From an uncultured Gammaproteobacteria bacterium (lineage in GTDB: Bacteria > Patescibacteriota > Patescibacteriia > Veblenbacterales > UBA10138), in the NCBI GenBank assembly GCA_964453605.1, contig CAYVOI010000001.1, positions 804,095-868,094 of the forward strand: DNA of 64,000 nucleotides, given 5' to 3'. The notes under the pieces were generated by a model. That model worked only from the letters and a program-made list of their open reading frames with translations. It was not told the origin of the DNA and did not search any database. This document shows, piece after piece, positions 46,055 to 64,000 of the stretch (positions are counted from its first letter, which is position 1; every line of letters begins with the position of its first letter). A program made the position numbers and the translations under genes.

Positions 46055-46084
46055 GCGAGGAATACACATTCCTCGCTTTTTGTT
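46055..46084 (+). terminator. Rho-independent terminator (7-bp GC-rich stem, 8-nt loop, T-run).
   Basis: gcgagga-atacacat-tcctcgc-tttttgtt, read directly. Confidence 0.6.
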
Positions 46085-46820: not shown

Positions 46821-47023
46821 CAAGGCACCACGCCGCAAGTGGAAAAAGATACGAGTCTGGTGCTGGCTCGGAATCCAGAATCTCAATCTAATCGTCGAGG
46901 AACCCAAGTTCCAAGTCACCCCAGGTGTCAGTGTCAAAACGAAAAGCCCCATCTATAATCGATGAGGGCTTTTTCTGTTCCTTGAAAATATTCCCTCATT
47001 ATGCTAGGGTGAAGCGTAACCTT

Positions 47024-48505: not shown

Positions 48506-48513
48506 AAGTTTTC

Positions 48514-48885: not shown

Positions 48886-48898
48886 GGATTTACAGGGC

Positions 48899-49795
48899 CT
48901 ACGAGCGGCCAAGTAACTTACGCACCAACGCAGCAAGCTCGGCGCCCGAGTAGAACACCACTTCCACCACACCGCGCTCCCTAGTACCGCGAACTTTCAC
49001 CTTGGTACCCAAAGCCTGCATGAGCTCTTGCTCGTAAGCCCTGAGTTCTGGTGCGGCCACACGGCGCTCGTGGCTGCGCACTTTAACGTTCCCCGCCTTA
49101 GCTTCGGCAAAACGGACGGGTAAGCCTTCTTTTACTATAAGGTCAAACAACTTTTCCTGTTCGGCTTTATCCTCCACACCCAAGATAACTTTGGCGTGGC
49201 CCATGGTGATAGTACCCGCTCGCAAAGCGTCCTGAATTCGTTTCGGAAGTGCCAGGAGTCGCTCAGTATTAGCCACCTGAGCCCTCGACTTCCCAACTCG
49301 CTCGGCCACCTTGGCCTGCGTCAGGCCAAACTCATCTTGTAGCTTGCGGTAAGCAAGGGCCTCTTCCAGCGGGTTCAGGTTTTGGCGCTGCAGGTTTTCT
49401 ACCAGCGCCAGTTCCAAACGCTGCTGCTCGGAGGCTTCACGAACAATAGCCGGCACTTGTGCTAGCCCGGCCACCCCAGCGGCCCTCAAGCGTCGCTCGC
49501 CGGCAATAAGCTCAAACTTCCCAGGTGCTAGCGGCCGAACAATCAGAGGTTGCAGAATACCGTGCGCCTTAATAGATGCCACCAGCTCGTCCAGGCTTGT
49601 CTGCTCAAAGTGCTGGCGGGGCTGGTGCTGGTTCGGTGTTATGGCGCTAAGCGACAGCTGCTGCACCTGTTCGGCAGAACTAGCACTTACCGGTGAAGCA
49701 GGTGCGCCTGAGCCACCCCAAAAGTTCGTGCCCTCTACTTTTTTAGGCTGGATTAGAGAGCTCAGGCCTTTTCCAAGTTGGAATGGTTTGGCCAT
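48899..49795 (-). CDS. parB: Chromosome partitioning protein ParB.
   Basis: ParB box LSAITPNQHQPRQHFEQTSLDELVASIKAHGILQPLIVRP. HTH GLTQAKVAERVGKSRAQVANTERLL. Confidence 0.9.
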   Translation of the reverse strand: MAKPFQLGKGLSSLIQPKKVEGTNFWGGSGAPASPVSASSAEQVQQLSLSAITPNQHQPRQHFEQTSLDELVASIKAHGILQPLIVRPLAPGKFELIAGERRLRAAGVAGLAQVPAIVREASEQQRLELALVENLQRQNLNPLEEALAYRKLQDEFGLTQAKVAERVGKSRAQVANTERLLALPKRIQDALRAGTITMGHAKVILGVEDKAEQEKLFDLIVKEGLPVRFAEAKAGNVKVRSHERRVAAPELRAYEQELMQALGTKVKVRGTRERGVVEVVFYSGAELAALVRKLLGRS

Positions 49796-49798
49796 AAG

Positions 49799-50560
49799 TT
49801 AGAGTTGTGCCAGGAGTTCTTGGGCTAGGGCGGCGTAGGCCTCTGCCCCGCGAGAACGCGGGTCGTAGCTGGTTATGGGCTTACCATAGCTTGGGGCTTC
49901 GGCTAAGCGCACGTTCCTGGGGACCATGGTCTGAAATAATTTGTTCGGAAAATGCTTCTTGAGCTCTTCTAGCACCGCACCACTTAAACGGCTGCGACCG
50001 TCGTACATGGTGACCACCGCGCCCAATACCGTAAGCTCAGGCTTCAAGTGAGTTTGAATGAGGTTTAAGGTGTTCATAAGCTGCCCCAAACCCTCCAGCG
50101 CATAGTACTCGGCTTGCAGGGGGATGAGTACCTGGTCAGCAGCCACCAGCGCGTTCACCGTGAGGAGCCCCAAAGAGGGAGGGCAGTCTATAAGTATAAT
50201 ATCATAGTCCTCGGCTACCGCAGTGAGCGCCTTGCTCAACCGAAACTCGCGGTTCTCTAAGTTAACCAGCTCAACCGCTGCCCCAGCCAGGTCAGCCTGT
50301 GCGGGAATAGCTGACAAACCATCTACGGCGGTGGGGCGCACGGTTTCACGCACCACCTCAGGCTCTAGCAGCACGTGGTAAATGTGCTTAGCCTCGGCTG
50401 GAACCTCTACGCCCACCCCCGCCGAAGCGTTGGCTTGTGGGTCTACATCAACCAGCAGCACTCGCTTACCTAAAACAGCAAAGTTAGCAGCCACATTTAC
50501 GGCGGTAGTAGTTTTACCTACCCCGCCTTTCTGATTTACTACCGCAATAACACGCGCCAT
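49799..50560 (-). CDS. parA: Chromosome partitioning ATPase ParA/Soj.
   Basis: Deviant Walker A VVNQKGGVGKTTTAVNVAA. Walker A' and B blocks. Confidence 0.95.
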   Translation of the reverse strand: MARVIAVVNQKGGVGKTTTAVNVAANFAVLGKRVLLVDVDPQANASAGVGVEVPAEAKHIYHVLLEPEVVRETVRPTAVDGLSAIPAQADLAGAAVELVNLENREFRLSKALTAVAEDYDIILIDCPPSLGLLTVNALVAADQVLIPLQAEYYALEGLGQLMNTLNLIQTHLKPELTVLGAVVTMYDGRSRLSGAVLEELKKHFPNKLFQTMVPRNVRLAEAPSYGKPITSYDPRSRGAEAYAALAQELLAQL

Positions 50561-50752
50561 ACCCGGTAGTAGAACCTGAGATAATACTGTGCACTCATCA
50601 TGGTGGCTAAAGAAATGACACTAGCCTAAGCAGTGAACCTACTGTGGTAGTTTCACTACCGGGATAGCCACTTTAGTATACGGTGCAGAACAGCCTTTGA
50701 CAATTCTCTACTCTATACCTATGATGAGATGTGCCTTATGCGTTGTTAGTGA

Positions 50753-50839
50753 GGGCGAGTGGCGGAACTGGCATACGCACAGGACTCAAAATCCTGGGCC
50801 CGCAAGGGATTGAGGGTTCGACTCCCTCCTCGCCCACCA
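50753..50839 (+). tRNA. tRNA-Leu (anticodon CAA), class II with long variable arm, CCA encoded.
   Basis: Manually folded GGGCGAG-TG-GCG-GAACTGGCATA-CGC-A-CAGGA-CTCAAAA-TCCTG-[GCCCGCAAGGGAT]-TGAGGG-TTCGACT-CCCTC-CTCGCCC-A-CCA. The ORF-track N-terminus of ORF 50731 runs through it and is spurious. Confidence 0.85.
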
Positions 50840-50844
50840 ACTAT

Positions 50845-51426
50845 ATGAAAAGCAACATTCTTATATTTCATGGCACTGAGGGCCACCCAGGAGAGAACTG
50901 GTTCCCGTGGATGAAGGACGAGTTGGAAGGGAGAGGCTATACGGTGTTAGTACCACAATTCCCTTCTCCGCCAATTGTCCCGGCAAAAATAGCGGAGTGG
51001 TTTGAGGTACTTAAAAACTACAAGCAATTCATAAACGAGGAAACAATTTTGATTGGCCATAGTTTGGGGGGAATTTTTGTTCTGCGTGTATTAGAAAAAT
51101 TATCTCACCCAGTTAAAGCAGCCTTTCTCGTGGGCACCCCCATTGGCGTCAGCCCGATCAAGAACTATGACCGAGATAATAGTTTCAGTGGCTTTAACTT
51201 TGACTGGGACACTATTAAAACAAAGGCTGGTCGTTTTGTAGTTTTCCAGTCTGATGATGACCCCTACGTAGGCCTAGCTAACGGCAAGGTACTCGCAAAA
51301 AATTTAGGCACTGAGCTCTCTTTTATACCTAACGCTGGACATTTTAATACGAAAGCCGGCTATGTGAAATTTGAAAAGTTGCGGGATATGGTAGTTAAAA
51401 GTTTACAAGGCGACTTGCAACATTAA
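50845..51426 (+). CDS. Alpha/beta-fold serine hydrolase of the RBBP9/YdeN type.
   Basis: ILIFHGTEGHPGENWFPWM...ILIGHSLGG (GxSxG nucleophile)...D..V in a ~190 aa protein. The ATG lies 6 nt after the tRNA-Leu CCA. Confidence 0.7.
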   Translation: MKSNILIFHGTEGHPGENWFPWMKDELEGRGYTVLVPQFPSPPIVPAKIAEWFEVLKNYKQFINEETILIGHSLGGIFVLRVLEKLSHPVKAAFLVGTPIGVSPIKNYDRDNSFSGFNFDWDTIKTKAGRFVVFQSDDDPYVGLANGKVLAKNLGTELSFIPNAGHFNTKAGYVKFEKLRDMVVKSLQGDLQH

Positions 51427-51567
51427 AGCAACTCCTGTATTCTAAGGTAGTTTCAAACGACGCGGGGTGGAGCCCGTAAAGCTCACTCCGCTCGCCACGG
51501 GCCTGAAACACTAGACACGCTTCCTACCACGATGTAACGTGTGGTGAGCGAAGCGAACTTTACACGT

Positions 51568-51642
51568 CGCGGGGTGGAGAAGTGGCATCTCGCCTGGCTC
51601 ATAACCAGGAGGTCGTGGGTTCGAATCCCACCCCCGCAACCA
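51568..51642 (+). tRNA. Initiator tRNA-fMet (anticodon CAT) with the C1xA72 mismatch, CCA encoded.
   Basis: CGCGGGG-TG-GAGA-AGTGGCA-TCTC-G-CCTGG-CTCATAA-CCAGG-AGGTC-GTGGG-TTCGAAT-CCCAC-CCCCGCA-A-CCA. Very similar to E. coli tRNA-fMet (CGCGGGGTGGAGCAG...CTCATAACC...CCCCCGCAACCA). Confidence 0.85.
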
Positions 51643-53140
51643 AATTTTTTTCTTGGGCAGTAGAAGCCCTGTTAAGCTCAAAGATTAGCCCCAGCTTGGC
51701 GGTTCCAAAACCTTGACCGTGGCGATACCGCACTCCCTCAGGAAAAACCAGCTTTTGGAACTGGTACTTGAGGGGGTCCGGCACGCTACGCCACCCAAAG
51801 GACAGGTTAGTCAGGAACTGCTCACCAAACGACAAGGCGCCGGCCAAGTCGTGTTTTTGTATATTAGCTTCACTCATGGAAATCTTAACGGCGGCTAGCT
51901 CATTGTCCACCTGCTGTTTACGTGCGATAAACTCCTCTTTAGTGTACGAACCCTCCTCGCGCATTTCATAAATCCGCTGTCTGCGCTCCTCCAGCACGTC
52001 AAGCTGCCGCTTGTAGGTTTCAGCTTCAGAATTGTAGGCTCTGTACTTCGCCTGCCAAACTGTTATCACCTTGGCCTTCAAAGCCTCAATGAAGTCAGGC
52101 CTGGCTGAAACAGCTCGCAATGCCCTATCAAAATCGTTCTCTACGTCTTTTTTGAGTAAACTGGCATAGAGCAACTGACAACCTGGGGTATAACAGCGGT
52201 AGTAGGCAAACCGCTTGCCTCGACTGCTGCTCCACGCGCCGGTCAGTGGCCCACCACAAGCATCGCAGAGCGCCGTACGGCGTAACGGAAAATCAGGGTG
52301 CGTACGCAATCGCTTCGGCGAGTGATTGTAGCCTCGATCTTGACGTATAAGCTGCACTCGCTGAAATTGCTCGTGAGTAATCAACGGCTCGTGCTTGCCC
52401 CGTATCTCTTTTCTGGTCCATGGATTCACGAGAATACCTGCGTAGTAGGGGTTCTGTAACATCCGATCGACAAACTGGATGTTTGTTTTTGTTTTACGAT
52501 ATCTGCTCAGCCCCCATTCCTCTAGCATGGCGGCTATAGCTTTCTGCGTGTACAAACCAGTTAGATACTCCTTAAACGCCCGACTAATCAGCGGCCCTGC
52601 CTCAGGGTCAATGGTATCCGGCGTCGTTTTACGCTCACCGCGCCGCTTTGAGCCCGATGACAAATACCCTACGGGCGGCTTCCACGGCCAAAAGCCCTGA
52701 TCAACCTTTTTGATAAGGCCATCAGTACATCTAATCTTACGAATATCATTCTCAAACTGCGCTGCGCCTGCCAGCACTGTTTCTATAAACTTCTCTGCTG
52801 GGCCAGAGCCAATCGGCTCCGTAACAGAATGCAAGGCTACGCCGTAGTCAGTCAGGATTTTACGCACGCTAAAGTGATCCTCAGTATTGCGGGCAAACCT
52901 ATCCAGACGTAACACGACAAAAGCCTGCGCCTTGCCCTTGTTTTTCCGTAGGTACTCTAAGGCACGCAGGAACTCAGTTCTATTCGTCGTTTTGGCAGAC
53001 TCGCCTTCATCTCTAAAAATCGCCACTACCTCAATACCCTTCTGATCACAGTAGGTACGACACTGCTGCTCCTGAGACTCCAAAGAGGTGCCCTTGACCT
53101 GCTCATCGCTTGATACCCTTGTGTAGATTATGCCTCGCAT
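51599..53140 (-). CDS. Large serine recombinase (resolvase/invertase N-terminal catalytic domain, recombinase domain, zinc ribbon and coiled coil). Its 3' end overlaps the 3' half of tRNA-fMet.
   Basis: MRGIIYTRVSSDEQ (catalytic Ser in YTRVSS). LRLDRFARN. C-x2-C...C-x2-C ribbon. The C-terminal ...VGFEPTTSWL is the antisense translation of the tRNA T-arm. Confidence 0.9.
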   Translation of the reverse strand: MRGIIYTRVSSDEQVKGTSLESQEQQCRTYCDQKGIEVVAIFRDEGESAKTTNRTEFLRALEYLRKNKGKAQAFVVLRLDRFARNTEDHFSVRKILTDYGVALHSVTEPIGSGPAEKFIETVLAGAAQFENDIRKIRCTDGLIKKVDQGFWPWKPPVGYLSSGSKRRGERKTTPDTIDPEAGPLISRAFKEYLTGLYTQKAIAAMLEEWGLSRYRKTKTNIQFVDRMLQNPYYAGILVNPWTRKEIRGKHEPLITHEQFQRVQLIRQDRGYNHSPKRLRTHPDFPLRRTALCDACGGPLTGAWSSSRGKRFAYYRCYTPGCQLLYASLLKKDVENDFDRALRAVSARPDFIEALKAKVITVWQAKYRAYNSEAETYKRQLDVLEERRQRIYEMREEGSYTKEEFIARKQQVDNELAAVKISMSEANIQKHDLAGALSFGEQFLTNLSFGWRSVPDPLKYQFQKLVFPEGVRYRHGQGFGTAKLGLIFELNRASTAQEKNLVAGVGFEPTTSWL

Positions 53141-53486
53141 AGGTAATACCTAAAAGGGACGACCTGGTTGTCCCAACTCCACTAGCCCAAGAAGGATTAG
53201 CTTTGTTGGCAGGCCGCCCCTTTAGAGCAACAACGCCAATAAAAAACTTCTTGGATTCGCCTTGGGAGTGGGACAACACCATAAGTATAGCAAAATATGC
53301 CCTACGGCACAATACTAACGTCATTTTGGTTAAGGTAGGCCTCGATTACTATCTCAGCCAAAGCCAATAGCACCTCCTCAACCTCCGTAGAGCCAGTGGC
53401 AGACCTTAGATCAATTGTTGGGCGTAGTGCCGGTGCTTGCATAAGTTAGCCCCAAAATAGCTTTGACAATGAATAAAACGAGAAAC

Positions 53487-53846
53487 TTACGTAAAGTTTT
53501 GGTTTTTCCTGCGGTAGTACGATGCCAGGGCTATCTGCCGACGGCGTTCTGGATGTGCTACAACCCACTTCAGCCAACCCCTATACTCGTTTACAGCCCA
53601 ACGTGGCCTAGAGGCCCTTGTACGGCGTTTGTAGGCCAGCACGGATTGATACCACTGCTGGTAGTTGGCCTTTATCCACCGTGCGGTCTTTTTCTGCCGG
53701 CAGCGTATACAAAAGTGGCTATGTAGGTCGGCATAGGTAGTGGTCCAGGGGTACAAGACTTCTGTGCGACCACAGCGACCAAAGCATTCTCTTGTGACTT
53801 TCATTAACACATCGCGCATAGGGATACCAAAAATATCATTTGCCAA
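53487..53846 (-). CDS. Small basic Cys/His-containing protein (119 aa). Possible Zn-ribbon DNA-binding regulator of the element.
   Basis: ECFGRCGR...HSHFCIRC plus a very Arg/Lys/Trp-rich C-terminus. It lies directly downstream of the repeat array at 53840-53966. Confidence 0.4.
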   Translation of the reverse strand: MANDIFGIPMRDVLMKVTRECFGRCGRTEVLYPWTTTYADLHSHFCIRCRQKKTARWIKANYQQWYQSVLAYKRRTRASRPRWAVNEYRGWLKWVVAHPERRRQIALASYYRRKNQNFT

Positions 53847-53966
53847 ATGTCAAAACATAGTTTTGACATTTATCAACCAACAGGCATCCAGGCTTGCCAA
53901 AATGCCACCCTATAAGGGTGGTGGCATTTGGCAAGCTGGTTCTGAATGCCATAGCGCTATTTGGCA
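53840..53966. repeat. Iteron or operator-like array: four TTGCCAAA(A)TG motifs (two direct, two inverted) organised into two long palindromes.
   Basis: The first is a perfect palindrome 53845-53871, AAATGTCAAAAC-ata-GTTTTGACATTT. The second is near-perfect, about 53893-53935, CTTGCCAAAATGCCACCC-tataa-GGGTGGTGGCATTTGGCAAG. A further inverted copy lies at about 53959-53966. Confidence 0.5.
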
Positions 53967-53968
53967 AC

Positions 53969-55777
53969 CTAAAATGGCAGCTCATCTTTGGTATGGCCGT
54001 CGCCCCGTTTAAGGAAGTAGAACCTAGTTGATGTTCCGCCGTCCCCCTTATCAATACCCTCCTTGCGTAACTGGCTGAGGGTTTTTGAGCAAATTACGCC
54101 AGCTGCGACTAACTCATCCCGGGCCGCCCTCATAGAAGTGGAGCCAGCTACATCCTTTAGGGCCTTTACCAACTGCTTGTGTGAGAGCCCACTGTCATCC
54201 TTGCCAAGGATTTCTAGCAGTCGCTCTTTAGCTTCTTGAGCGGCATAGGCTTCATCATCATATTCACCCCCGCCCTCAAAATTCACCCTACCTGGTTCGG
54301 ATATGACTTTGACGACGAACGGCTTGAGCAGCTCATCGTCTCTCTGCTTAGTCTGCACGAGTACCAACTGTCTAGTATTCCCCTCGTCCTCCTTACTGAC
54401 TATCGCAAGGTGAGAATCAACCATCCCCAAGATATCACTGGACCCCCGCATGGCCTCAGCCTGCGCCATTATGTCGGTTACCTTAATCTTAAATGTGCCC
54501 TGCTTCCGGTGGTGATGTGCCAGCACAACCGTCATACCGGCTTCGGTAAACTTCCTAAGCGCCAGGTAGACCTGGTTCATAGCCGTGGCGCTGTTCTCGT
54601 CTTGATTGTGAATGCGCACCAAGGTGTCGAACATGATGAGTCCAATGCTCTTACGTTTTGCCTCAGCCAACAGTGCCTCTGCCTGTTGTTCGTTGTCAAC
54701 CCTAAAACCATCCCCGATGTGGTAATAGATTGGGAGATCGAGTTGGTCGGTCAGTAACTTGATGCGTCGGGCTAATCTGTTCTTGTGGTTCTCCTCATCC
54801 ACGATCATCACGGCCTGCTGTTGCGTTCCATATTCACCAAGTACCTTAGTGCCTAGGGCACAGGCAATTGCTATGTGGCTCAGCAAGAATGACTTATACA
54901 ACCCGGGCGGGCTTGAAATCACCGTAATTCCCCCCTTTGGTATCAAACGATGCACGGTCCATTCGGGCTCAGCAACTTCCATCAAGGCCAGGTCTTGAAA
55001 GGCCACGGCTTCACCTAGGGGGCGTGTCTGGTGGCTACTAGTAGCTCTAGGCTGATTGAGCTGTCGAGCTGCTATGCTTTCGAAAGTACGACGCAATTCC
55101 TCTGTAGCCAAAGGCGGGCTACAACGCGAATTCCACGCCAAGGCAGCGTCCCAGGCTGCGGTAGGCCACAGTTCCTGCGGTAAGGCGTGAACCAGCTCAC
55201 CGATAAAGCTGGCGGCCGACATATTACGTTCACCCTCACCCACACCTTCTGCTATATGTTCCCACTTTTTCGCTGTAGCAGGTCGAATAGATGACAGTTC
55301 GGGCAATGGCTGAGGATCCGTTTCGCCAGGGGGTATAAGCCACTCGTAGGCTTTGCCTGACCTATGAACGGAAGGTGGTACGACAATGTAACCACCATCG
55401 CCCCGGACATCGGTAAGTTTCACCTTATTCGTGCTGTTAGGAACCGGGTGACCGGGCCATTGGTAAATGAAGTGCTGGCCACCACCGCCGGTCTGCGAGG
55501 TAATAGTTTGTGGGTAGCAGGTAAAGTCGCCATTGCGCTCGACGTCAATCGCTACTATGCCTGATACCTTGCCTGTAGCTATACCAATATTGGCCTCTGG
55601 GTACCGCCCCCACCACTGATTGATTTGCTCCTCGCTCGCTTTTTCGGTTTGGTATAGCTTCCAATCTACCAGGGGAGCTTTATCCCCGCCGACGGGGAAA
55701 GGACTCCAACCGATGCTGCGGTAGTAGAGGGCCCAATCCATCATTTTCTTGTGTGACGCCGAAGTCATAGTATTCAT
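53969..55777 (-). CDS. Bifunctional primase-polymerase (Prim-Pol N-terminal domain) fused to a RepA/DnaB-like P-loop ATPase (AAA_25-like). Replication protein of phage or plasmid type.
   Basis: N-terminus LYYRSIGWSPFPVGGDKAPLVDWKLYQ...GIATG (Prim-Pol pattern). Central P-loop ISSPPGLYKSFLL and Walker B IVDEE. Confidence 0.8.
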   Translation of the reverse strand: MNTMTSASHKKMMDWALYYRSIGWSPFPVGGDKAPLVDWKLYQTEKASEEQINQWWGRYPEANIGIATGKVSGIVAIDVERNGDFTCYPQTITSQTGGGGQHFIYQWPGHPVPNSTNKVKLTDVRGDGGYIVVPPSVHRSGKAYEWLIPPGETDPQPLPELSSIRPATAKKWEHIAEGVGEGERNMSAASFIGELVHALPQELWPTAAWDAALAWNSRCSPPLATEELRRTFESIAARQLNQPRATSSHQTRPLGEAVAFQDLALMEVAEPEWTVHRLIPKGGITVISSPPGLYKSFLLSHIAIACALGTKVLGEYGTQQQAVMIVDEENHKNRLARRIKLLTDQLDLPIYYHIGDGFRVDNEQQAEALLAEAKRKSIGLIMFDTLVRIHNQDENSATAMNQVYLALRKFTEAGMTVVLAHHHRKQGTFKIKVTDIMAQAEAMRGSSDILGMVDSHLAIVSKEDEGNTRQLVLVQTKQRDDELLKPFVVKVISEPGRVNFEGGGEYDDEAYAAQEAKERLLEILGKDDSGLSHKQLVKALKDVAGSTSMRAARDELVAAGVICSKTLSQLRKEGIDKGDGGTSTRFYFLKRGDGHTKDELPF

Positions 55778-55939
55778 TGACTATCAGTGCTTAATAAATC
55801 CACCCCGGTGAAACGGTTCGCGGCGAGCCGTCGCACAGAGGCGGATGCATGCCGCGAAACAAAAAACTGGAGGGTGACTCCAGTGTAAACGCTGCGGTCC
55901 GAGCAGTCGTAACCGATGATATTTTTTTATCCGTAACTT

Positions 55940-56581
55940 TTATCCAGTGCGCAGATTTCTAACCCTCATGGAGGGGGGAAGTCTGAGTTTTTTGGGATAG
56001 TCGGAAACAATTTTTTTTATGTGTCCATAGTCCAAATCATCCCCAAACTCAGACAAAATAATCGCAGCTATCTCTTTTATGGTTTTCCCTTTTCTCGCTA
56101 AATTATATACTGCCTTATCGCGTTGCAATGTCTGCCAAGGTTTATTTATTAACCTCCGCCCCCTCAGATCAGAGTACTTATAGGTAGACTTGATGTGCTC
56201 AGTAACGGCCTCACCGTTATTTTGTTCGTCATCTCCAGCCAGTCGAATACGCTCACCTTTATCGGGGTCAATTGAGCTACTACCGGTAAGCACATATTCC
56301 TCTAAAAACCAAGTCCATCCCCTATGCAGCTTAAATTTTTTCCTCAACTCAGCGATGTCATTGGTAAAGCTAACGTCATTCATCATGCGCTCAAGGTAAC
56401 TATCATAGGATTCATCATTTCCTCTTTCATACTCGTCTGGGTTAATTGACCGATCAATATTCCAAGTCACTCTTATTTTATCAACTTCAACGTCAAAAAA
56501 GGGATTGGCTAAAAGTATCTGTACCCTTGGGTTGGATACCGCTCGTTGATCCCTGTGTGGCCATTTTAATTCGCCGCGCAT
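55940..56581 (-). CDS. Hypothetical protein (213 aa) with a C-terminal helix-turn-helix-like segment. AT-rich gene.
   Basis: ORF only. KGKTIKEIAAIILSEFG resembles an HTH recognition region. No family recognised. Confidence 0.45.
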   Translation of the reverse strand: MRGELKWPHRDQRAVSNPRVQILLANPFFDVEVDKIRVTWNIDRSINPDEYERGNDESYDSYLERMMNDVSFTNDIAELRKKFKLHRGWTWFLEEYVLTGSSSIDPDKGERIRLAGDDEQNNGEAVTEHIKSTYKYSDLRGRRLINKPWQTLQRDKAVYNLARKGKTIKEIAAIILSEFGDDLDYGHIKKIVSDYPKKLRLPPSMRVRNLRTG

Positions 56582-56791
56582 GATTGTATTTTAGCTCAAA
56601 AATAGTATAATACAACCACAACTAAATAATTCTAGCAGTAGCCTAAACTCAGCCGCCTGGCTGGGCATGGCTCAAAAGCCTTTCCAGATATTAAGCTCTC
56701 CGTTCAGAGCCCTGGAAAGGTCATGCGCCGAAAGGTGCATGGGGTCGCAAGACTCACTGGCGGGGAGCTTTGTGTATTCCTCTCACAATCT

Positions 56792-57655
56792 ATGTACAAA
56801 TTGTTAACAATTCTTACCCTTGTGATGCTATTAGGAGCGGGCTGCGCCTCACCGGTTTCAGAAGAAAACCCTTCAATTGGTCTAGTCAATCAGCAACAGG
56901 TATCAAACGAGCCAGCAATTGGGTCAACGTTATTTCAAAATCCACAAACAGATAAAAAAATCCAGGCACTTCAAGAACAACTTGATGCTACTAAGAAAGA
57001 GCTTGACTCGCTGAAAAAAAACAGCGCAGACAACAATAACACCTCGGCGGTGGTGGCAAAGTGGCGGCCGCAAGTAGCACTAATTACATGTAGCTGGTTT
57101 TACGCGGGTACAGCCCAATATCTAGTTCAAAGTGGTTCGGGTCTGTTATATAGGGTTCCACCAACCGATACAATTGTTGTGGCAACAAATCGTCATGTGT
57201 TCACTGATCCGTATGGTAATAGCCCAACAAAATGTTCAGTAAAGTTTCCCGATGATGTAAACTTTTTCGATGTATCGAGTGCTACGCCAAGTGAAAACGG
57301 TACGGACTTTGGTTTACTCGGAATAAAGCAGCCCGATGAATATCTGATAAGTATTGCTTCCCGTTTAGACAGCAAATCTTTTCTATGTATAGATAAACCG
57401 GAAATTGGTGATAGTGTTGTTATACTAGGTTACCCTGTTAATGGTTCATCAACAGATATTACCGCAACCGAAGGTATAATATCCGGATTTGACGGTGATT
57501 ATTATATTACGTCGGCGAAAGTTGAACACGGAGACTCAGGTGGTGCAGCAATATTAACAAGTAAGAATTGTTCGCTGGGATTACCAACCTCAGTCGTTCC
57601 AGGACAGCTTGAGTCGTTGGCACGAATCCTGCCTTGGCAAATTACTGCGAAATAA
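56792..57655 (+). CDS. Lipoprotein with a coiled-coil segment and a C-terminal trypsin-like (S1) serine protease domain.
   Basis: Lipobox LLGAGC after MYKLLTILTLVML (the track ORF starts earlier at 56723). Coiled coil KKIQALQEQLDATKKELDSLKK. Protease motifs TNRHV (His) and EHGDSGGAAIL (GDSGG Ser). Confidence 0.7.
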   Translation: MYKLLTILTLVMLLGAGCASPVSEENPSIGLVNQQQVSNEPAIGSTLFQNPQTDKKIQALQEQLDATKKELDSLKKNSADNNNTSAVVAKWRPQVALITCSWFYAGTAQYLVQSGSGLLYRVPPTDTIVVATNRHVFTDPYGNSPTKCSVKFPDDVNFFDVSSATPSENGTDFGLLGIKQPDEYLISIASRLDSKSFLCIDKPEIGDSVVILGYPVNGSSTDITATEGIISGFDGDYYITSAKVEHGDSGGAAILTSKNCSLGLPTSVVPGQLESLARILPWQITAK

Positions 57656-57728
57656 CAACCTATCCAAAATACCTGGGGCGAAAGTCCCGACCTAGCGGCG
57701 AGCTTTGTGTATTTAGTGGGGTACGACT

Positions 57729-58493
57729 ATGAAAAAACTATTATTTATTCTACCGGTTTTGATTCTGGTTGGTGCTGGCTGTACTGAGCAGTCTCTCGGC
57801 ACTCTGGATCACAACACAAATGGAATAAGCAATGCTTTAACCCATAGTATTTCTATACAACCCGGCACAGTAGGTTATGAACTAAGTCACCAATCGGACT
57901 ATCCGAGGAAGCAAAACACATCAATAGAAACTGCTACACCAGTGAGTAAATCAACGAGACAAACTATAAAGAAAGTTTACAAATCACCAACTGTACCCGC
58001 CACAGATAACGACGTTTACTGTAATGGTTCATCCTGGACTCCTTGCCCACCTGGACAACAGTTTTACTGCCCACCAGCCGGCAGTGCCCAATGTATAACG
58101 CCACAAGCCATCCAAGCGCCAACGGTAAGTTACCAAGAGAGGTGTATCGAGGACGGCATGAAGTTAATAAAATATCCGGACTATGATCGGTTAAATAAGC
58201 AACAGAGCGCATTGACTAAAGTATCCGAGGGGAAGAAGGCGGACATCACCGCCGACGAGTGGGCTGCACTTACATCGACACAACTTAATGCTATCAATAG
58301 TGGCGACCTAAAATTACTTGAATCTGCTGGTGATGAAGTCGCAGCTGGGGAGAAGTATGCAGATGTCCAGCTTGGACAAATTTCAAATATGACTGAGCAG
58401 ATTGGGGTGATGTGTGGCGCAATCTCAACAGAGGGTCAGATGGTATATGAATTACAGCAGATACAGCAAGCTATAAACAGATTGTCACAATAG
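57729..58493 (+). CDS. Lipoprotein (254 aa) with a Cys-rich segment and a C-terminal coiled coil. Hypothetical.
   Basis: Signal plus lipobox MKKLLFILPVLILVGAGC. YCNGSSWTPCPPGQQFYCPPAGSAQC. Confidence 0.55.
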   Translation: MKKLLFILPVLILVGAGCTEQSLGTLDHNTNGISNALTHSISIQPGTVGYELSHQSDYPRKQNTSIETATPVSKSTRQTIKKVYKSPTVPATDNDVYCNGSSWTPCPPGQQFYCPPAGSAQCITPQAIQAPTVSYQERCIEDGMKLIKYPDYDRLNKQQSALTKVSEGKKADITADEWAALTSTQLNAINSGDLKLLESAGDEVAAGEKYADVQLGQISNMTEQIGVMCGAISTEGQMVYELQQIQQAINRLSQ

Positions 58494-58526
58494 GGTTTAC
58501 TTATTTCACTCTTTTACCACAATCTT

Positions 58527-58790
58527 ATGGGTTACATAGAAGAAAACGGCGAGTACAAGTACAAGCGAACATCGGTTGACGCTTGGGGGTTTGTCATATA
58601 CCTCATACCAGGTGTTATCCTCTACTTCAGTTTCAATCAGTCACTACTCGCCATGTTGGTTTGGTTGGTGGGGTTAGTGGCTTACGGCATATTTTACTGC
58701 ATTGATTACATTGGATTTGTCGGTAGAGACATACATGAGATAAGAAAAACGTTAGATACTATAGCAAATGGTTTGAAGGATAAAAGTTGA
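58527..58790 (+). CDS. Small two-TM membrane protein (87 aa).
   Basis: ORF with two hydrophobic helices. Follows the two lipoprotein genes. Confidence 0.4.
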   Translation: MGYIEENGEYKYKRTSVDAWGFVIYLIPGVILYFSFNQSLLAMLVWLVGLVAYGIFYCIDYIGFVGRDIHEIRKTLDTIANGLKDKS

Positions 58791-58862
58791 GTAGTCTAGG
58801 TGAGTTATCAAAAAACGAGCCTTTGCTCGTTTTTTGATAGCCTCATCGAGGCTACTAAAACA

Positions 58863-59525
58863 TCAGCTAAACGGTCGGGCGCTACCATCACCTGAGTATG
58901 AGAGGTTCTGCATATCCCATAATAGATACGGTATAGCAGACCTCTGCTCATTTGTTGAAACAGAAGTCACTAGATCGGAGATATTACGTGAAAATTCTGA
59001 TCTCCCCTTACCTATAGCCTCGTCTACTGAGTGATCTTTTAGAAGTGAGGTCATGATTAAATTAGATGGACCGAGAAATAGATCTGCTAGTTGGTCCACC
59101 TCAGGACGCGTCCTCTTCTCGAGGGTATAACTCAGGATAAAAGGTTGTTGATAGCCAATATATGCGAAGGCACCTTTAGCTGTACAATTTGGCCCTAAGA
59201 TACTCATTGAACTACAAGCTAATGCATATACAATTTTACCTTCGAGTAAATTCTCATTATCATCAGATACCACCAAAGGTTCGTTATCGTGACCCGTAAC
59301 ACACGTTTCATTGCCATGCCCGTTTAAAAAAACAAGCGACGGCCGCTGTTTAATCAACATACTTTCGAAAGTTTTTCTATTTGCTTTTTTCTTTTCCAAA
59401 TCTAGAACAGTCTTACCCTTCTGCTCTGCAAAATCGACAATCTTTTTTGCCCAAGTTGATAAGTAACGAGTCGCATAATCGTAATCAGGTCTAGTAACAA
59501 GTAAAATACCTCTCATATCATACAT
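58863..59525 (-). CDS. Hypothetical protein with a clan-CD (caspase, metacaspase or CHAT-like) His-Gly...Ala-Cys dyad signature (220 aa).
   Basis: Beta-strand GILLVTRP. LVFLNGHGNETCVTGHD has His in a GHG context after a hydrophobic strand. GKIVYALACSSMS has Cys in an A-C after a hydrophobic strand. The spacing is consistent with the caspase fold. Very AT-rich. Confidence 0.5.
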   Translation of the reverse strand: MYDMRGILLVTRPDYDYATRYLSTWAKKIVDFAEQKGKTVLDLEKKKANRKTFESMLIKQRPSLVFLNGHGNETCVTGHDNEPLVVSDDNENLLEGKIVYALACSSMSILGPNCTAKGAFAYIGYQQPFILSYTLEKRTRPEVDQLADLFLGPSNLIMTSLLKDHSVDEAIGKGRSEFSRNISDLVTSVSTNEQRSAIPYLLWDMQNLSYSGDGSARPFS

Positions 59526-59739
59526 CTTGGTTTTGATACATGAATCCTTCTTTAAGCGCTCTTAGGTAATTTAATTGAACCTCAATGATCTTTTTACCAA
59601 TTTCATCACCTATCCGAATATGCTCAATGATCTGCTCCTTGCTCAAGTCACCATGATCACCAAAAGAAACACCAACCCCTTCCGGCGTGGCTTCAATTCG
59701 AGCTATCACTATCTCTTTTACCTCTTCTTCCCTAGCCAT
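59518..59739 (-). CDS. Small acidic protein (73 aa), translationally coupled to the caspase-like gene.
   Basis: 8-nt overlap with the downstream gene. No family recognised. Confidence 0.45.
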   Translation of the reverse strand: MAREEEVKEIVIARIEATPEGVGVSFGDHGDLSKEQIIEHIRIGDEIGKKIIEVQLNYLRALKEGFMYQNQDV

Positions 59740-59741
59740 AC

Positions 59742-59927
59742 CTATATAAAATTCAACTCGATGAGTTTATTAAATATTTCCTGACCCGAGGGAGTCTCCG
59801 CCTTAATCTCTAAATAAGCAGCATTCCAGGTTATGGGTCCTTTGTCAGGTAAAACCAAGATGACCTCATCCCTTGTGCCAAGGGGTAAGTTCGAGTATAC
59901 CTTCAGAAACCTATCTTTATTCTCCAT
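59742..59927 (-). CDS. Small protein (61 aa), first gene of the three-gene module.
   Basis: The stop is 2 nt before the next start (TAG gt ATG). No family recognised. Confidence 0.45.
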   Translation of the reverse strand: MENKDRFLKVYSNLPLGTRDEVILVLPDKGPITWNAAYLEIKAETPSGQEIFNKLIELNFI

Positions 59928-60300
59928 CGTAGGTTTATCTAAGTATCCTTCCTAGTCTCACCGCAGCCGTTATTATGTAACATTATTATAGAGGTTTTAT
60001 GAAACACTGTCAATCAAATTTCTGCTCGTAGAGTTTGGGGGATTTACAAAAAAATCACAAAATTCCGTCTCACGTCCTCCGGATGAGGAGGGCTGAAAAG
60101 ACGATCGTTTTCATTTTCCACCCACCAACGAGAGGGTTCCAAAATTTTTAGACAACTTTACAACTTAGACCGCTGGTCTGAGGTCACAGGCCTGGAATAT
60201 AGCCTGAAAGGCTAGTATCTCCTGGACTAAGGCGTTCCAGTTTGCTATCATTAGGTCAACCAAATTAAAATCTTCCACATAGACCTAGGTACCTAGGCCA

Positions 60301-61095
60301 ATGTCACCAACGCCCCGCAAGGGGCGTTTGTGTTATGATAGCTGTATGGATTCGATAACTGAAAAAAATCAACAAGCATACGATGATCGCGCCGATGCAT
60401 GGCAGGCGGCTTTAAGCACCAATGTTAGCCATTGGTATTTAGAGAAACCTGCAATGGTTGATCTGCTGCCGCCAACGCTTGTGGGCAAACGGGTGCTCTG
60501 TATAGGTGTCGGTACGGGCGACGAACTAGAGGAGATCTTTCAACGTCACCCCGATTCTGTTGTCGGAATCGATATGTCCGTGAAACTCATGGACATAGCA
60601 AGGGTTAAATTTCCAACTACGGAATTTCAGCAAATGGACATGCTACAGCTAAGATTCCCGGATAAAAGTTTTGACTTCATATACTCAAGCTTAACATTTC
60701 ACTATACAAGAGACTGGGACATACTTCTCGGAGAAGTAAATCGCGTGCTCGTGGATAATGGCGAATTACTTTTTTCTACGCACCATCCGGGGTATTGGGG
60801 TCTCAAGCCAGCGACAGGCAATACTTTTGTTAATCCCCGCGAGGTGCGCACGACCGAGCACACGGCGATTTTACCTGGGCAGGTAGGGATTACTTATTAC
60901 AATCACAAAAATGAAGAAGCCATCAAAGATGCTGTCGAGCATGCTGGTTTTAAGATAGAAGAGGCTTTCGTCCCACTTGTTGTTGAAGTTGCGCTAAGCG
61001 ACTTACCACCTGAACACATCGAGGGTTATAAGGTTTTAAAGACAAGGAACGAGAAAACTCCACTTTTTTATATAGTGAAAGCTCAAAAATTGTAA
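60301..61095 (+). CDS. Class I SAM-dependent methyltransferase.
   Basis: Motif I VLCIGVGTGDELEEIF. Post-I acidic residue (GIDMS). Motif DFIYSSLTFHY. Confidence 0.8.
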   Translation: MSPTPRKGRLCYDSCMDSITEKNQQAYDDRADAWQAALSTNVSHWYLEKPAMVDLLPPTLVGKRVLCIGVGTGDELEEIFQRHPDSVVGIDMSVKLMDIARVKFPTTEFQQMDMLQLRFPDKSFDFIYSSLTFHYTRDWDILLGEVNRVLVDNGELLFSTHHPGYWGLKPATGNTFVNPREVRTTEHTAILPGQVGITYYNHKNEEAIKDAVEHAGFKIEEAFVPLVVEVALSDLPPEHIEGYKVLKTRNEKTPLFYIVKAQKL

Positions 61096-61464
61096 GCATC
61101 ACTCGAATCCGTACAATCGCTATCGTTCATTGCAGCCATTGAGTTGGAATCACAATTTTTCCGGGGCCTTTCATAATCCTGGTTGCAATAACGTCCACGA
61201 TGCCCAACCAAAGCAAAGCGCCTCACCGCATGGTGGGGCGGTTTGCTTTCTGGTGTGCTAGAGTGAGCGAGTGAACTGCTTCACTCGCGTTGGGATTCGA
61301 ACGCCGGAGCGATGCCCAGCCAGCTGGCGGGGCCGCGAGGCGGTGGCTAGCCCGACGAGCACGGCGGTGCGAGGAGAGGCAAAGCCGAAGCCCCTAAAAT
61401 AAAACCTTTCACTGGATAGTCTGGACGTAGCAAGCATCATATGGTATAAGCAATAGGCAACTAT

Positions 61465-61541
61465 GGCAGGGTAGCTCAGTTGGTTAGAGCGAGGGACTCA
61501 TAAGCCCTAGGTCGTGGGTTCGATTCCCACCCCTGCTACCA
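61465..61541 (+). tRNA. tRNA-Met (anticodon CAT; elongator Met or Ile2 type), CCA encoded.
   Basis: GGCAGGG-TA-GCTC-AGTTGGTTA-GAGC-G-AGGGA-CTCATAA-GCCCT-AGGTC-GTGGG-TTCGATT-CCCAC-CCCTGCT-A-CCA. G1-U72 wobble. One A-G at 31:39. Confidence 0.8.
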
Positions 61542-61706
61542 GAGCACAGAACCTCATGGCACACGCTATGGGGTTGTGTGCTGTTATTAATGGCTAAGTT
61601 GAGGCACAAAGTACTACCTTTCAACAGCTACCAGTAGCACCAGGCCGGAAAAATTGCTATCCTAAAGCCACCTGAAACTGAAGGTATCTGAAAGGAGGTG
61701 ACGAGT

Positions 61707-61970
61707 ATGATGGCACACAACAAAGGTCTCCACATGGTAACGTGGATTCTCATCATCGTCGGAGGTCTGAACTGGCTCCTGGTTGGGCTGTTCAACTGGG
61801 GTATTGGTAACCTCTTCACCGGATCAGCCATGTGGGTAGCACAGCTTATCTACATCTTGGTGGGACTCTCCGCAATTTACGAAATCGCCACCCACGGTGG
61901 CCGCTGCAAGGAGTGCGAACAAATGGGTAGCAAGCCGATGGGCGGTATGGGTACACCCATGAACTCCTAA
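61707..61970 (+). CDS. DUF378-family small membrane protein.
   Basis: VGGLNWLLVGLFNWGIGNLF...LIYILVGLSAIYEI matches DUF378 (YuzA-like). Perfect SD AAAGGAGG 8 nt upstream of the ATG at 61707 (the track start is a GTG at 61698). Confidence 0.8.
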   Translation: MMAHNKGLHMVTWILIIVGGLNWLLVGLFNWGIGNLFTGSAMWVAQLIYILVGLSAIYEIATHGGRCKECEQMGSKPMGGMGTPMNS

Positions 61971-62061
61971 ACTTGAACTAACTACACCTAACCAGTCCGC
62001 CTCGGGCGGACTGGTTTTGTATAGCGGCCATGCATGGTACCATAGCAAATAACGCGAGCAT

Positions 62062-62511
62062 ATGTACCTGAGCGTTCACACCACTGCCGGCCTCCTCATA
62101 GCGGGTACTACCCAAAACCCAATCTTGGGGTTTGTTGCTGGTTTGGCCTCACACGTCGTGCTCGACCTGGTACCCCACGGTGACGAACTACCGACCCACT
62201 TCACTAGACCACAAGTTCTACGGCGTCTCTTGGGGGCAGCCGTGCTCGATACCACAGTGGCCGCAGTGCTCCTCTTGGTGTACGCAACGGCCGGCCACGC
62301 CTTTAACGTAACCACGCTGGCTACACTGGCCGGCTGCCTGCTACCTGACGCACTTGAAGGCACCTACCTTATCACACAAACCAAGTGGCTGAGCTGGTTC
62401 TCACACCTGCACGGCAAGCTCCACAACTTCACCAAGGTCAAACTCCGCTGGCAAACAGGCATGCTCATCCAGTGCCTCACCCTTACGGCTCTGTGGCTCC
62501 TGGCACTCTAG
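62062..62511 (+). CDS. Membrane-bound metal-dependent hydrolase-like protein (DUF457/YdjM-like).
   Basis: Multi-TM protein with conserved His/Asp (HVVLDLVPHGDE...H..H). The family assignment is tentative. Confidence 0.45.
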   Translation: MYLSVHTTAGLLIAGTTQNPILGFVAGLASHVVLDLVPHGDELPTHFTRPQVLRRLLGAAVLDTTVAAVLLLVYATAGHAFNVTTLATLAGCLLPDALEGTYLITQTKWLSWFSHLHGKLHNFTKVKLRWQTGMLIQCLTLTALWLLAL

Positions 62512-62548
62512 CGTAAGCGAGCAAAGCGGAATCTGGTATACTACACGT

Positions 62549-63883
62549 ATGAAATTGAACCACGCCCCCAAAGCCTGGGTTGTAGCTGTGGACATGGGCT
62601 ACGGCCATGAACGCGCGGCCTATGGCCTTAAAGAACTCTCCTACGGCCCGGTACTCATCGCCAACAACTACCCCGGCATTCCCAAAGCGGAACGCCAGCA
62701 CTGGACTGAGCTCAGGAAGCTCTACGAAACGGTATCGCGCTTTAAGTCCGTACCAGTAGTTGGAAATTTGCTGTTCGACGCCATGGACCAGTTCCAGCAG
62801 ATTGAGCTGTTCTACCCCAGGCGCGACCTCAGTGCCCCCAACCTGCAGCTCAAGCAAACCTACAGCCTCATTCGCAAAGGCTTGGGCCGTCACCTCATCG
62901 AGCTCGCCCAAAAACACCCCCTACCCCTAGTAGCTACGTTCTTCCAAGCTGCCTTCGCCGCCGAGGAGCTCGACTACCCGAACGACATTTACTGCGTGAT
63001 TTGTGACGCTGACTGCAGCCGCACCTGGGCGCCCCTGAACCCCCACCAGAGCCGTATTAAGTACTTCGCACCGAACGGCAGAGTGGTCGAACGCCTGAAG
63101 CTCTACGGTGTCAGGCCCGAGAACATCTACCTCACTGGTTTTCCCCTCCCCAAGGAGCTCATCGGCGGGCCCAAAATACCGGTTATCAAGCGCGACCTGT
63201 CCCGGAGGCTTCAGAACTTGGACCCGAAAGGTATTTTCGATGATAAATATGGCAGCACGGTAGCAAGGTACCTTGGGAAAAATTGGCGGAACCTAGACCA
63301 CAAGCACCCACTAACCGTAACCTTTTCTTTAGGTGGGGCTGGTGCGCAGCGCAACCTGGCCCTCCAGGTAGCCGAAAGCCTTGGCACTAAAATAGCCCAG
63401 GGGAAAATTCGCCTGAACATTGTAACCGGCACACACCACGACGCGCTGCTCTACTACCGCCAGGGTATCAAAGACCTGCATCTCAACAAGTACCTCGGTG
63501 GCTACCTAAACATTGTGCACCAAAAAAGTAGGAACGAGTACTTCCTGCAGTTTAGTGAACTACTCCACACTACCGATATTCTCTGGACCAAACCGTCAGA
63601 ACTTTCCTTCTACACTGGCCTTGGGCTCCCCATTATCGTTGCTCCACCCATAGGCAGCCAAGAGCAGTTCAACAAACTGTGGCTGCAGAACGTGGGCGGT
63701 GGCATAACCCAGAACGACCCCCGCTACACCGACGAATGGCTCTTCGACTGGGTGGAATCAGGTGGTCTGGCTCGCACGGCTTGGAACGGTTTTCTCGAGG
63801 CCCCCACTCACGGCGCTTACCGCATAGATAGCCTGATCACGGGTAAAAAGGTTGAGCTTGAACAACTGCCGCTAATTGTGTAA
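62549..63883 (+). CDS. GT-B fold glycosyltransferase of the GT28 (MurG / MGDG-synthase-like) type.
   Basis: N-terminal VAVDMGYGHERAA (G.GH..AA as in MurG/MGDG synthase). C-domain TFSLGGAGAQ (compare MurG GGSQGA) and TGLGLPIIVAPP. Confidence 0.5.
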   Translation: MKLNHAPKAWVVAVDMGYGHERAAYGLKELSYGPVLIANNYPGIPKAERQHWTELRKLYETVSRFKSVPVVGNLLFDAMDQFQQIELFYPRRDLSAPNLQLKQTYSLIRKGLGRHLIELAQKHPLPLVATFFQAAFAAEELDYPNDIYCVICDADCSRTWAPLNPHQSRIKYFAPNGRVVERLKLYGVRPENIYLTGFPLPKELIGGPKIPVIKRDLSRRLQNLDPKGIFDDKYGSTVARYLGKNWRNLDHKHPLTVTFSLGGAGAQRNLALQVAESLGTKIAQGKIRLNIVTGTHHDALLYYRQGIKDLHLNKYLGGYLNIVHQKSRNEYFLQFSELLHTTDILWTKPSELSFYTGLGLPIIVAPPIGSQEQFNKLWLQNVGGGITQNDPRYTDEWLFDWVESGGLARTAWNGFLEAPTHGAYRIDSLITGKKVELEQLPLIV

Positions 63884-64000
63884 TGTGGGAAATAAAAAAC
63901 TCAACCGGAATTGTCCAGTTGAGTTCTTAATTTCTTTGACCAAGCTAGATAAAGGCTAAACCGGTGGCTAGTAAAACAAGTTCGAGCATTGATAAGCTGT

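Follow-up and report, generated by a model that had tools for sequence, protein, structure and literature searches.

Large pieces of DNA are inserted into genomes mainly with serine integrases, whose direction of reaction normally depends on a second protein. To our knowledge, the large serine recombinases (LSRs) of phages and integrative and conjugative elements (ICEs) have their attP outside the integrase open reading frame (ORF), target protein-coding or intergenic sequences and are accompanied by a separate directionality factor. An attP within the integrase ORF is found in the SSV1-type tyrosine integrases of viruses and integrative plasmids of Sulfolobales and Thermococcales, which target a tRNA gene and whose own gene is partitioned on integration. 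These SSV-type systems have ~44 bp of identity to the tRNA and leave two large gene fragments, and some are carried by plasmids that replicate with a PrimPol. In the integration-dependent immunity of cluster G, N and P mycobacteriophages, attP is situated in the 3' end of a gene, and integration alters the C-terminus and the behavior of the encoded protein. According to a 2015 database paper, serine integrases were not known to target tRNA genes (PMC4383910). Here, we describe a locus in a 64,000-nt stretch of DNA (contig CAYVOI010000001.1, positions 804,095 to 868,094; hereafter the window) from a genome of the candidate phyla radiation (CPR)/Patescibacteria whose closest relatives are Kaiserbacteria-like. 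At this locus, a mobile element with an LSR gene has inserted at the tRNA-fMet 3' end, leaving the C-terminal tail of its recombinase detached at the opposite end of the element. We consider it very probable that the element spans window positions 51647-60266 (8,620 bp) and is integrative and plasmid-like.

The tRNA genes, the recombinase and the element ends are arranged as follows (window coordinates):

51568..51642, plus strand: tRNA-fMet, initiator type, the integration target, intact (ARAGORN; Rfam tRNA 65.1 bits; same sequence in the relative L236, 9016-9090)
51599..53140, minus strand: LSR, integrated form, 513 amino acids (aa) (PF00239 2.3e-31; PF07508 3.6e-12; PHROG_95 integrase 2e-82)
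51637..51646, plus strand: attL core CAACCAAATT, tRNA C71-A76 followed by AATT (direct reading; same 10-mer at 60257-60266)
60165..60263, minus strand: detached native LSR C-terminal tail LVDLMIANWNALVQEILAFQAIFQACDLRPAV, then stop (tail model hit; translation)
60257..60266, plus strand: attR core CAACCAAATT, 8,620 bp from the attL core
60309..60334, plus strand: terminator-like hairpin with T-rich tail, 42 nt past attR (8 pairs, 6 of them G-C)
61465..61541, plus strand: elongator-type tRNA(CAT) (tRNA-Met), a host neighbor and not an att site (ARAGORN, Rfam; 100% identity to L236 9155-9231)

As the initial annotation of this DNA had noted, the recombinase gene ends inside tRNA-fMet, and its final 44 nt are antisense to the tRNA. 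Residues 1-501 of the LSR are native, while the final 12 (AGVGFEPTTSWL) are read from the strand opposite the tRNA, so that the integrated protein ends ...EKNLVAGVGFEPTTSWL. A hidden Markov model (HMM) of 60 native-tail sequences, run against the six-frame translation of the window, gave one significant match (E 8.5e-4), on the minus strand at 60284-60168, reading ...DFN LVDLMIANWNALVQEILAFQAIFQACDLRPAV*. The displaced tail at attR reads LVDLMIANWNALVQEILAFQ..., and its counterpart in the related loci L075 and L234 is LVDLVTQNWNQLVQDIIAFQALL. Residues 1-501 joined to the detached tail make a 531-aa protein with the canonical C-terminus of the family. The two ends of the element are perfect 10-bp direct repeats, in the context ...cattaggtCAACCAAATTaaaatc... 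at 60257-60266 and ...cccccgCAACCAAATTtttttc... at 51637-51646. The tRNA part of the core is C71-A72-A73-C74-C75-A76, with four further nucleotides after it; these six tRNA nucleotides are repeated at attR, where no longer tRNA fragment was found at up to three mismatches. Only the 3' flank of the tRNA is therefore exchanged, and the tRNA stays whole after insertion. The core is also the antisense of the invariant Leu-Val codons of the LSR, ~30 codons before its stop, with Leu-Val antisense to A73-CCA, which places attP inside the recombinase gene.

An empty version of the site was found in a relative, L236, which was located through the DUF378 gene beyond tRNA-Met (92% identical protein). L236 is collinear with window positions 41348-51643 and 61464-63884 at 77-80% DNA identity and has tRNA-Leu(CAA), tRNA-fMet and tRNA-Met within 350 nt. 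Its tRNA-fMet and tRNA-Met have the same sequences as those in the window and are separated by a 64-nt spacer with a hairpin, and no recombinase, primase or cargo gene is present at this tRNA-fMet/tRNA-Met locus. The collinearity breaks at 51643, and the window has a surplus of 9,820 bases over L236 (51644-61463). An insertion at the tRNA-fMet 3' end is thereby confirmed. The initial annotation had thus correctly placed an integrated element at this tRNA and had foreseen a relative with the two tRNAs adjacent, but its estimate of ~10 kb for the element did not hold, the real size being 8,620 bp.

A related element occupies the same locus in a Kaiserbacteria-like contig, L234, whose LSR is 79% identical to that of the window. 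The order there is tRNA-Leu, a hydrolase gene, tRNA-fMet joined to the LSR gene, ~9.3 kb, the detached tail LVDLVTQNWNQLVQDIIAFQALL..., ~210 nt, tRNA-Met and DUF378, and the core is CAACCAAGA. In a direct reading of the tails of the window and L234, roughly half of the codons that differ in the helical part encode the same amino acid, which argues for selection on the tail at the protein level, though it is detached in every copy seen.

The same layout recurs across a large family. There were 1,462 homologues of the LSR at E<=1e-20, the best 120 of which were 47-79% identical over their full length. Homologue C-termini diverge abruptly after the motif GFGTAKLGLIxELN..KSxLV into two types of ending: either tRNA-antisense peptides (GFEPTT, GIEPLL, RIELLT..., MPWRRSTN, CECSVLPLYYRP) or the conserved native tail LVDxxxxxWNQIIxELxxWxxL. 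The LSR ORF ended on an antisense tRNA in 39 of 80 metagenome loci, corresponding to 33 non-redundant cases (21 at tRNA-Ala, nine at tRNA-Glu, two at tRNA-Arg and one at tRNA-fMet), and ~35 of the 80 had a native tail and no nearby tRNA. The invariant Val codon (V501 in the window) was the in-frame complement of C74-A73-N72 in 15/15 non-redundant loci that encode CCA. A detached tail was observed 8-11.5 kb upstream, on the same strand, in nine loci with sufficient upstream DNA (L075, L078/79, L081, L096, L097, L116, L130, L136 and L147). As L078 duplicates L079, these represent eight non-identical elements. Their attL and attR had common cores of 4-9 nt, which always included the Val codon plus one nucleotide. 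With a weaker detached-tail match in L105 (18 bits) and the further instance in L234, ten non-identical relatives have this arrangement, and in 82 loci every tail match was on the recombinase strand. Some loci, such as L089 and L104, have near-identical upstream sequences and different tails, which argues against the native-tail and tRNA-tail forms being separate lineages. One contig, L099, is 7,366 nt long with a 127-nt terminal repeat, and represents a 7,239-bp circle with an intact native-tail recombinase gene.

Comparison of the cores suggests where recombination takes place. Cores range from 4 to 10 nt, and what all of them share is at least GTNN, corresponding to C74-A73-N72-N71. On these sequences, the exchange must fall within N71-C74 across the family, and the crossover dinucleotide is probably A73-C74, since the complementary GT did not vary in any attL or attR site examined. 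Cores this short appear consistent with the 2-bp crossover and the little att identity of large serine recombinases. The tRNA-Ala counterpart of the core is GTCCACCA. For the 531-aa recombinase, the predicted attP is gctatcattaggtCAACCAAATTtttttcttgggcag and the predicted attB is cccccgCAACCAAATTaaaatcttccac, and the junction contexts are predicted to be ...gtttgctatcattaggtCAACCAAATTtttttcttgggcagtagaag... (attP) and ...gaatcccacccccgCAACCAAATTaaaatcttccacatagacc... (attB). The conserved Lys-Lys or Glu-Lys codons before Leu-Val give a T-run on the tRNA strand, 5-8 nt past CCA or, taken more widely, 1-8 nt past it (window CCAAATTTTTTTC, 51643-51652; L074 attL, 3089-3075), and the inserted element may in this way supply the tRNA with a new terminator-like T-tract. 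The hairpin at 60309-60334 is probably the terminator that tRNA-fMet had before the insertion.

The recombinase has the features expected of an LSR. Its resolvase catalytic domain is present, and R8, S10 and R65 are invariant in 34 homologues. The PF13408 zinc ribbon scored 19.5 bits, under its cut-off of 25.3, and Cys 292, 295, 316 and 321 are invariant. In a model of a homologue, the coiled-coil region is predicted to form helices 351-398 and 404-428, and the model resembled the full-length LSR structures 9dxh, 9iu2 and 9rah in Foldseek comparisons (E 5e-15 to 3e-12). As a whole-protein model, it matched the cryo-electron microscopy structures of the serine integrases Bxb1, PhiC31 and A118. 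The native tail, with the motif LVD......WNxh[IV]xELxxWxxL, is predicted to be helical; in an AlphaFold2 model of the native-tail homologue P0014, helices were predicted at 500-509 and 511-529 (pLDDT 80-86). According to that model, the crossover point would fall inside helix 500-509, and the tail would correspond to helix 511-529.

The split gene, with one of two C-termini depending on the state of the element, the direct repeats, the empty site, the recurrent layout and the one circular contig were all observed computationally, and they suggest the following sequence of events. In the free circle, the gene would encode the 531-aa recombinase with its native tail. The recombinase itself would carry out an attP x attB insertion at the 3' end of tRNA-fMet, after which the gene would run into the tRNA antisense strand and gain 12 unrelated residues, and the coding sequence of the tail would be left behind at attR. 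Once excised, the circle would replicate by means of the Prim-Pol/helicase protein described below. Loss of the terminal helix may alter the activity of the recombinase such that, for example, the form encoded by the circle would be competent for integration and the chromosomal form would be different or inactive.

Several observations weigh against this interpretation. Neither a circular junction nor an empty site was found for this exact element, and the three public contigs that contain it all have the integrated form, identical to the window. The reconstituted 531-aa protein was not present in a collection of 15 billion proteins, and exact-protein look-ups for the recombinase, the DUF378 protein, the methyltransferase and the 531-aa recombinase gave no other context and no circular form. 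The dyad symmetry around the core that is expected of an LSR attP was undetectable in 28 attP sequences (best 7.5/20 vs. ~5 expected). Some native-tail genes are found on contigs of 40-97 kb with no tRNA nearby, so the equation of a native tail with a free circle is proven for L099 only. Lastly, L236 also lacks a methyltransferase block and a 253-nt spacer that lie between attR and tRNA-Met in the window. As it lacks more than the element, comparison with L236 alone cannot fix the right end, which rests on the repeat and the tail.

The element carries the following further features:

53103..53324, minus strand: 73-aa ORF, upstream of and overlapping the LSR start (62-65% identical, same position in L074, L075, L234 and L235)
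53969..55777, minus strand: Prim-Pol / PriCT_1 / AAA_25 primase-helicase (Pfam; PHROG DNA polymerase/primase; 53% identical in L075, L234 and L235)
55940..56581, minus strand: 213-aa protein (ORF; no family match)
56640..56755, plus strand: LOOT RNA (RF03000), heading the rightward cargo genes, opposite the LSR strand (Rfam)
56723..57655, plus strand: trypsin-like (PF13365) putative lipoprotein (Pfam; homologues in elements L097 and L136)
57729..58493, plus strand: 254-aa putative lipoprotein, signal peptide ending ...LVGAGC (ORF, sequence; no family match)
58527..58790, plus strand: 87-aa small hydrophobic protein (ORF; no family match)
58863..59525, minus strand: caspase-fold (clan CD-like) cysteine peptidase, 220 aa
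59518..59927, minus strand: a pair of small ORFs, of 73 and 61 aa, 5' of the peptidase gene (no family match)

The 73-aa ORF at 53103..53324 had no Pfam or PHROG match; at a guess, it encodes a regulator or a directionality factor. The Prim-Pol/PriCT_1/AAA_25 protein is, judging by its domains, probably the replicase of the excised circle. The 220-aa peptidase has a caspase-hemoglobinase fold with the conserved His...Cys dyad of clan CD. Its family has >150 members of ~215 aa in many CPR lineages, with His and Cys invariant, and no Pfam, PHROG, NCBIfam or PADLOC model was found for it. PADLOC gave weak matches to a protease domain and a methyltransferase domain and no defense system. Near the two small ORFs at 59518..59927, there is a perfect match to the -35/-10 consensus at 60013-59985. 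Both the trypsin-like and the 254-aa protein have lipobox-like N-termini, and the true start of the former is probably the Met of MYKLL... near 56783. Each lipoprotein gene is closely preceded by one copy of a 22-nt direct repeat, CTGGCGGGGAGCTTTGTGTATT (91% identical; 56757-56778 and 57692-57713), of which the first directly adjoins the LOOT RNA at its 3' end. The initial annotation had described the block to the right of the recombinase as richer in AT than its surroundings, and this was borne out by both G+C content (GC) and GC at third codon positions (GC3): GC is 46.7% in the element and 42.3% in the cargo, compared to 54-56.5% in the flanks, and GC3 is 0.34-0.48 in the element and 0.59-0.69 in the flanks.

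The LOOT RNA was matched over its full length with 85.9 bits (gathering score 46.4, E 1.8e-15), and L075 and L234 have 84.7% identity to the window in this region. LOOT RNAs scored above threshold in eight of 18 other tRNA-integrated loci tested, always opposite the recombinase: L075 (3792-3903), L078 (7970-8082), L081 (6559-6669), L097 (4795-4909), L116 (7873-7989), L118 (5190-5319), L130 (6811-6932) and L136 (7927-8045 and 1112-1216). None was found in nine long native-tail loci, nor in the circular L099. Many of the integrated elements, if not all, thus include a LOOT RNA. The main text of the paper that is the source of the LOOT family contains no discussion of it (Weinberg et al. 2017). 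An inverted repeat had suggested a second, inverted LOOT near 61307-61328 of the window, and a permissive Rfam scan found nothing there. In L136, the second LOOT (1112-1216) lies beyond the detached tail (3018-3100), which keeps the upstream residues DGKKSHLV; together, these features point to a tandem pair of elements at a single tRNA-Glu.

In some relatives, extra detached tails were observed downstream of intact native-tail genes, on the same strand and 0.1-2.3 kb apart. Such arrays occur in L117 (11495, 12453, 13898, 15037 and 16386) and L146 (7562, 7680, 9918, 10054 and 11668), and also in L103, L144, L089/L090, L143, L151 and L133. Native-tail genes on long contigs that have no tRNA are often followed by such arrays. 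In L117, a tRNA-end-like core, a hairpin and a T-run come before each tail when the reverse strand is read, and each interval has one ORF on the opposite strand. The multi-tail arrays look like accreted attR-type junctions or cassettes.

Alternative explanations for the extent of the inserted DNA have to be considered. The initial annotation had proposed an element of ~10 kb bracketed by tRNA-fMet and tRNA-Met, with a 25-nt T-arm segment common to the two reflecting tRNA-to-tRNA targeting or a past recombination. The segment is real, as the tRNA(CAT) genes at 51568-51642 and 61465-61541 (ARAGORN, Rfam) share 24/25 nt in direct orientation and 84% over 45 nt, and the extra DNA compared to L236 fills precisely the interval between tRNA-fMet and tRNA-Met. 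However, the empty site of L236 already has both tRNAs and the segment, which is therefore a property of the tRNAs that predates the insertion and not an att site. Moreover, L234 has an element in the same locus with the same architecture, even though the T-arms of its tRNA-fMet and tRNA-Met are dissimilar. The acceptor stems of tRNA-fMet (CGCGGGG/CCCCGCA) and tRNA-Met (GGCAGGG/CCCTGCT) are each self-consistent, so neither tRNA is chimeric, and the detached tail and second core are located at 60165-60266, away from tRNA-Met, with attR 1.2 kb before it. We give this explanation almost no credence. The 1.2 kb between attR and tRNA-Met comprises a methyltransferase block (GC 45.3%, GC3 0.44) and a 58%-GC spacer, neither of which is present in L236. 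The gene in this block is:

60346..61095, plus strand: class I S-adenosylmethionine methyltransferase, outside the element (no counterpart in L236; low GC)

Because attR is at 60257-60266, the methyltransferase gene (probable start 60346) lies beyond the element, to which the initial annotation had assigned it. This leaves a composite island as a further explanation, in which the 9.82 kb would consist of the 8.62-kb element and of what is left of an earlier insertion at the same tRNA (60267-61211), with a decayed attR at 61205-61211. In its favor are the low GC of the block and its absence from L236, the sequence AACCAAA at 61205-61211, where the minus strand reads LV + 6 aa + CNQ compared to the native LV + 6 aa + WNQ, and the strongest terminator-like hairpin of the region, which comes next on the plus strand (61219-61240); the multi-tail arrays of relatives also show that accretion happens. 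On the other hand, the tail HMM gives no score at 61205-61211, no recombinase remnant lies beside attR, the hairpin may be no more than the terminator of the methyltransferase gene, and L234 has no such block. In L044 (188-1443), a methyltransferase homologue is located 36 nt past a homologue of the Ser_hydrolase whose gene precedes tRNA-fMet in the window, where the pair flanks that tRNA, and this pairing suggests a different, unrelated history. We therefore regard a composite island as somewhat unlikely, albeit conceivable. As the attR of the element itself, 61205-61211 (AACCAAA with the LV...CNQ frame) was rejected, as the tail HMM points to 60257-60266 instead.

The nature of the element can also be questioned. 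It might be a fixed, immobile remnant, in which reading of the LSR gene into the tRNA is a truncation caused by decay. That only integrated copies were found, that no circular form is on record and that the integrated-form protein lacks the conserved tail would all fit such a remnant. Yet all of its ORFs, and even the untranslated tail, are intact, the 10-bp repeats are perfect, and the LSR keeps all family-invariant residues, including Ser10. In addition, the same "truncation" is the rule in the 33 independent integrated relatives, which indicates a state and not decay; we judge an immobile remnant to be unlikely. A prophage or phage satellite is far less probable still. A serine integrase together with a primase-helicase is a common phage and satellite module, and both proteins had matches in PHROG, whereas IMG/VR contained no close relatives (<=31% identity). 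There is no capsid, terminase or other virion gene, the eight other ORFs tested had no PHROG match, and 8.6 kb is too small for a tailed phage. An integrative, plasmid-like element that ends at 60266 is therefore the interpretation that we prefer.

A number of other observations concern the locus into which the element has inserted. Of the features of bacterial initiator tRNAs, tRNA-fMet has a C1xA72 mismatch and A11:U24, and, by direct reading, two of the three G-C pairs of the anticodon stem, with U-A at 29:41. A 22-nt sequence (cttcaaacgacgcggggtggag in L236) that spans part of the 5' flank and the first 12 nt of tRNA-fMet is duplicated in the window (51451-51472 and 51558-51579), and the two copies enclose an 85-nt insert whose ends are imperfect inverted repeats. 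In L236, there is a single copy and no such insert. The duplicated 22-mer and its insert are possibly the scar of another insertion, 5' of tRNA-fMet. The Ser_hydrolase (PF06821) gene at 50857-51426 starts 17 nt past tRNA-Leu, has a GC of 43.5% and has no counterpart in L236. When 185k genomes were searched with it as a marker of synteny, 69 loci came up, spread over many CPR and DPANN phyla, with 65-82% aa identity and no synteny, which indicates that the gene is itself horizontally mobile, and it looks like a widely transferred single-gene cassette. A general rule of adjacency between this hydrolase and tRNAs was rejected, as a tRNA was within 400 nt in just nine of 50 homologue loci. Logan contigs L070, L071 and L073, from two SRA runs and independent assemblies, end at tRNA-Leu (50810) and inside tRNA-Met (61485-61512). 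These ends were considered as a sign of population heterogeneity and found to be uninformative, since metagenome graphs often break at conserved tRNAs; they are probably due to tRNA sequences common to co-occurring relatives and have no bearing on excision.

How, then, does this recombinase compare with those already described? It belongs to the same family as the PhiC31, Bxb1, A118/LI and TP901-1 integrases and has the same domain order (resolvase with Ser10, recombinase, four-Cys zinc ribbon and long coiled coil). The LSRs of phages and ICEs likewise have very short att identity, and their unidirectional logic of integration is expected here as well. It differs from them in having attP in its own last ~30 codons, in targeting the A73-CCA of a tRNA and in being changed by the insertion. 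In models, its family has an extra ~95-residue helical C-terminal region past the coiled coil, unlike phage and ICE LSRs. As in the SSV-type systems, attP is inside the integrase ORF and the gene is split, although the present enzyme belongs to the serine recombinases, has a core of just 4-10 bp and exchanges nothing but its C-terminal tail. In the mycobacteriophage system, the repressor is affected and the integrase is a tyrosine recombinase, whereas here it is the integrase itself that is affected. The element also resembles Islander-type islands and tycheposons, which are small, are located at tRNA 3' ends, leave the tRNA functional and often carry primase/helicase modules; an LSR is carried by 27 of 937 tycheposon-like elements. 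Classical tRNA-gene islands, however, duplicate tens of tRNA nucleotides and the window element six, and no tyrosine recombinase, as in Islander and SSV elements, was found among the proteins of 51.6-60.3 kb. By analogy, its nearest counterparts appear to be tyrosine-recombinase systems, namely the SSV1-type partitioned integrases and the mycobacteriophage integration-dependent immunity.

In literature searches of incomplete coverage, we found no description of a serine integrase with attP in its own ORF or of one that targets the CCA of tRNAs, and no description of this tail-swap layout in the literature on tycheposons with serine recombinases. What appears to be new here is a serine integrase that specifies tRNA genes and has attP inside its own ORF with a C-terminal swap; it is otherwise a bona fide LSR on a tRNA-integrating, plasmid-like island. 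A more ambitious proposal can be made, which we consider speculative and rather improbable. The tail swap would be a built-in sensor of state in place of a separate directionality factor, with the full-length recombinase, competent for attP x attB, made by the free circle alone and the chromosomal tail-less isoform prone to excision or silent until needed; the family would be a large undescribed class that recognizes the universal A73-CCA; the multi-tail arrays would represent integron-like accretion of cassettes; and LOOT would function in replication or regulation.

For annotation, these data explain the hundreds of recombinase genes that seemingly end in "GFEPTT"-like peptides, and they provide a rule by which element ends can be located, the core at the Leu-Val codons and the detached WNQII tail. 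If our interpretation is true, a recombinase family with the att site in its own reading frame would offer a new type of directionality control, in which the enzyme changes its form on insertion, and a large natural family of serine integrases would target the conserved 3' end of tRNAs. It would also give the orphan LOOT RNA its first genomic context, in the integrative recombinase elements of CPR bacteria, and would describe a common type of mobile element in these poorly known organisms.

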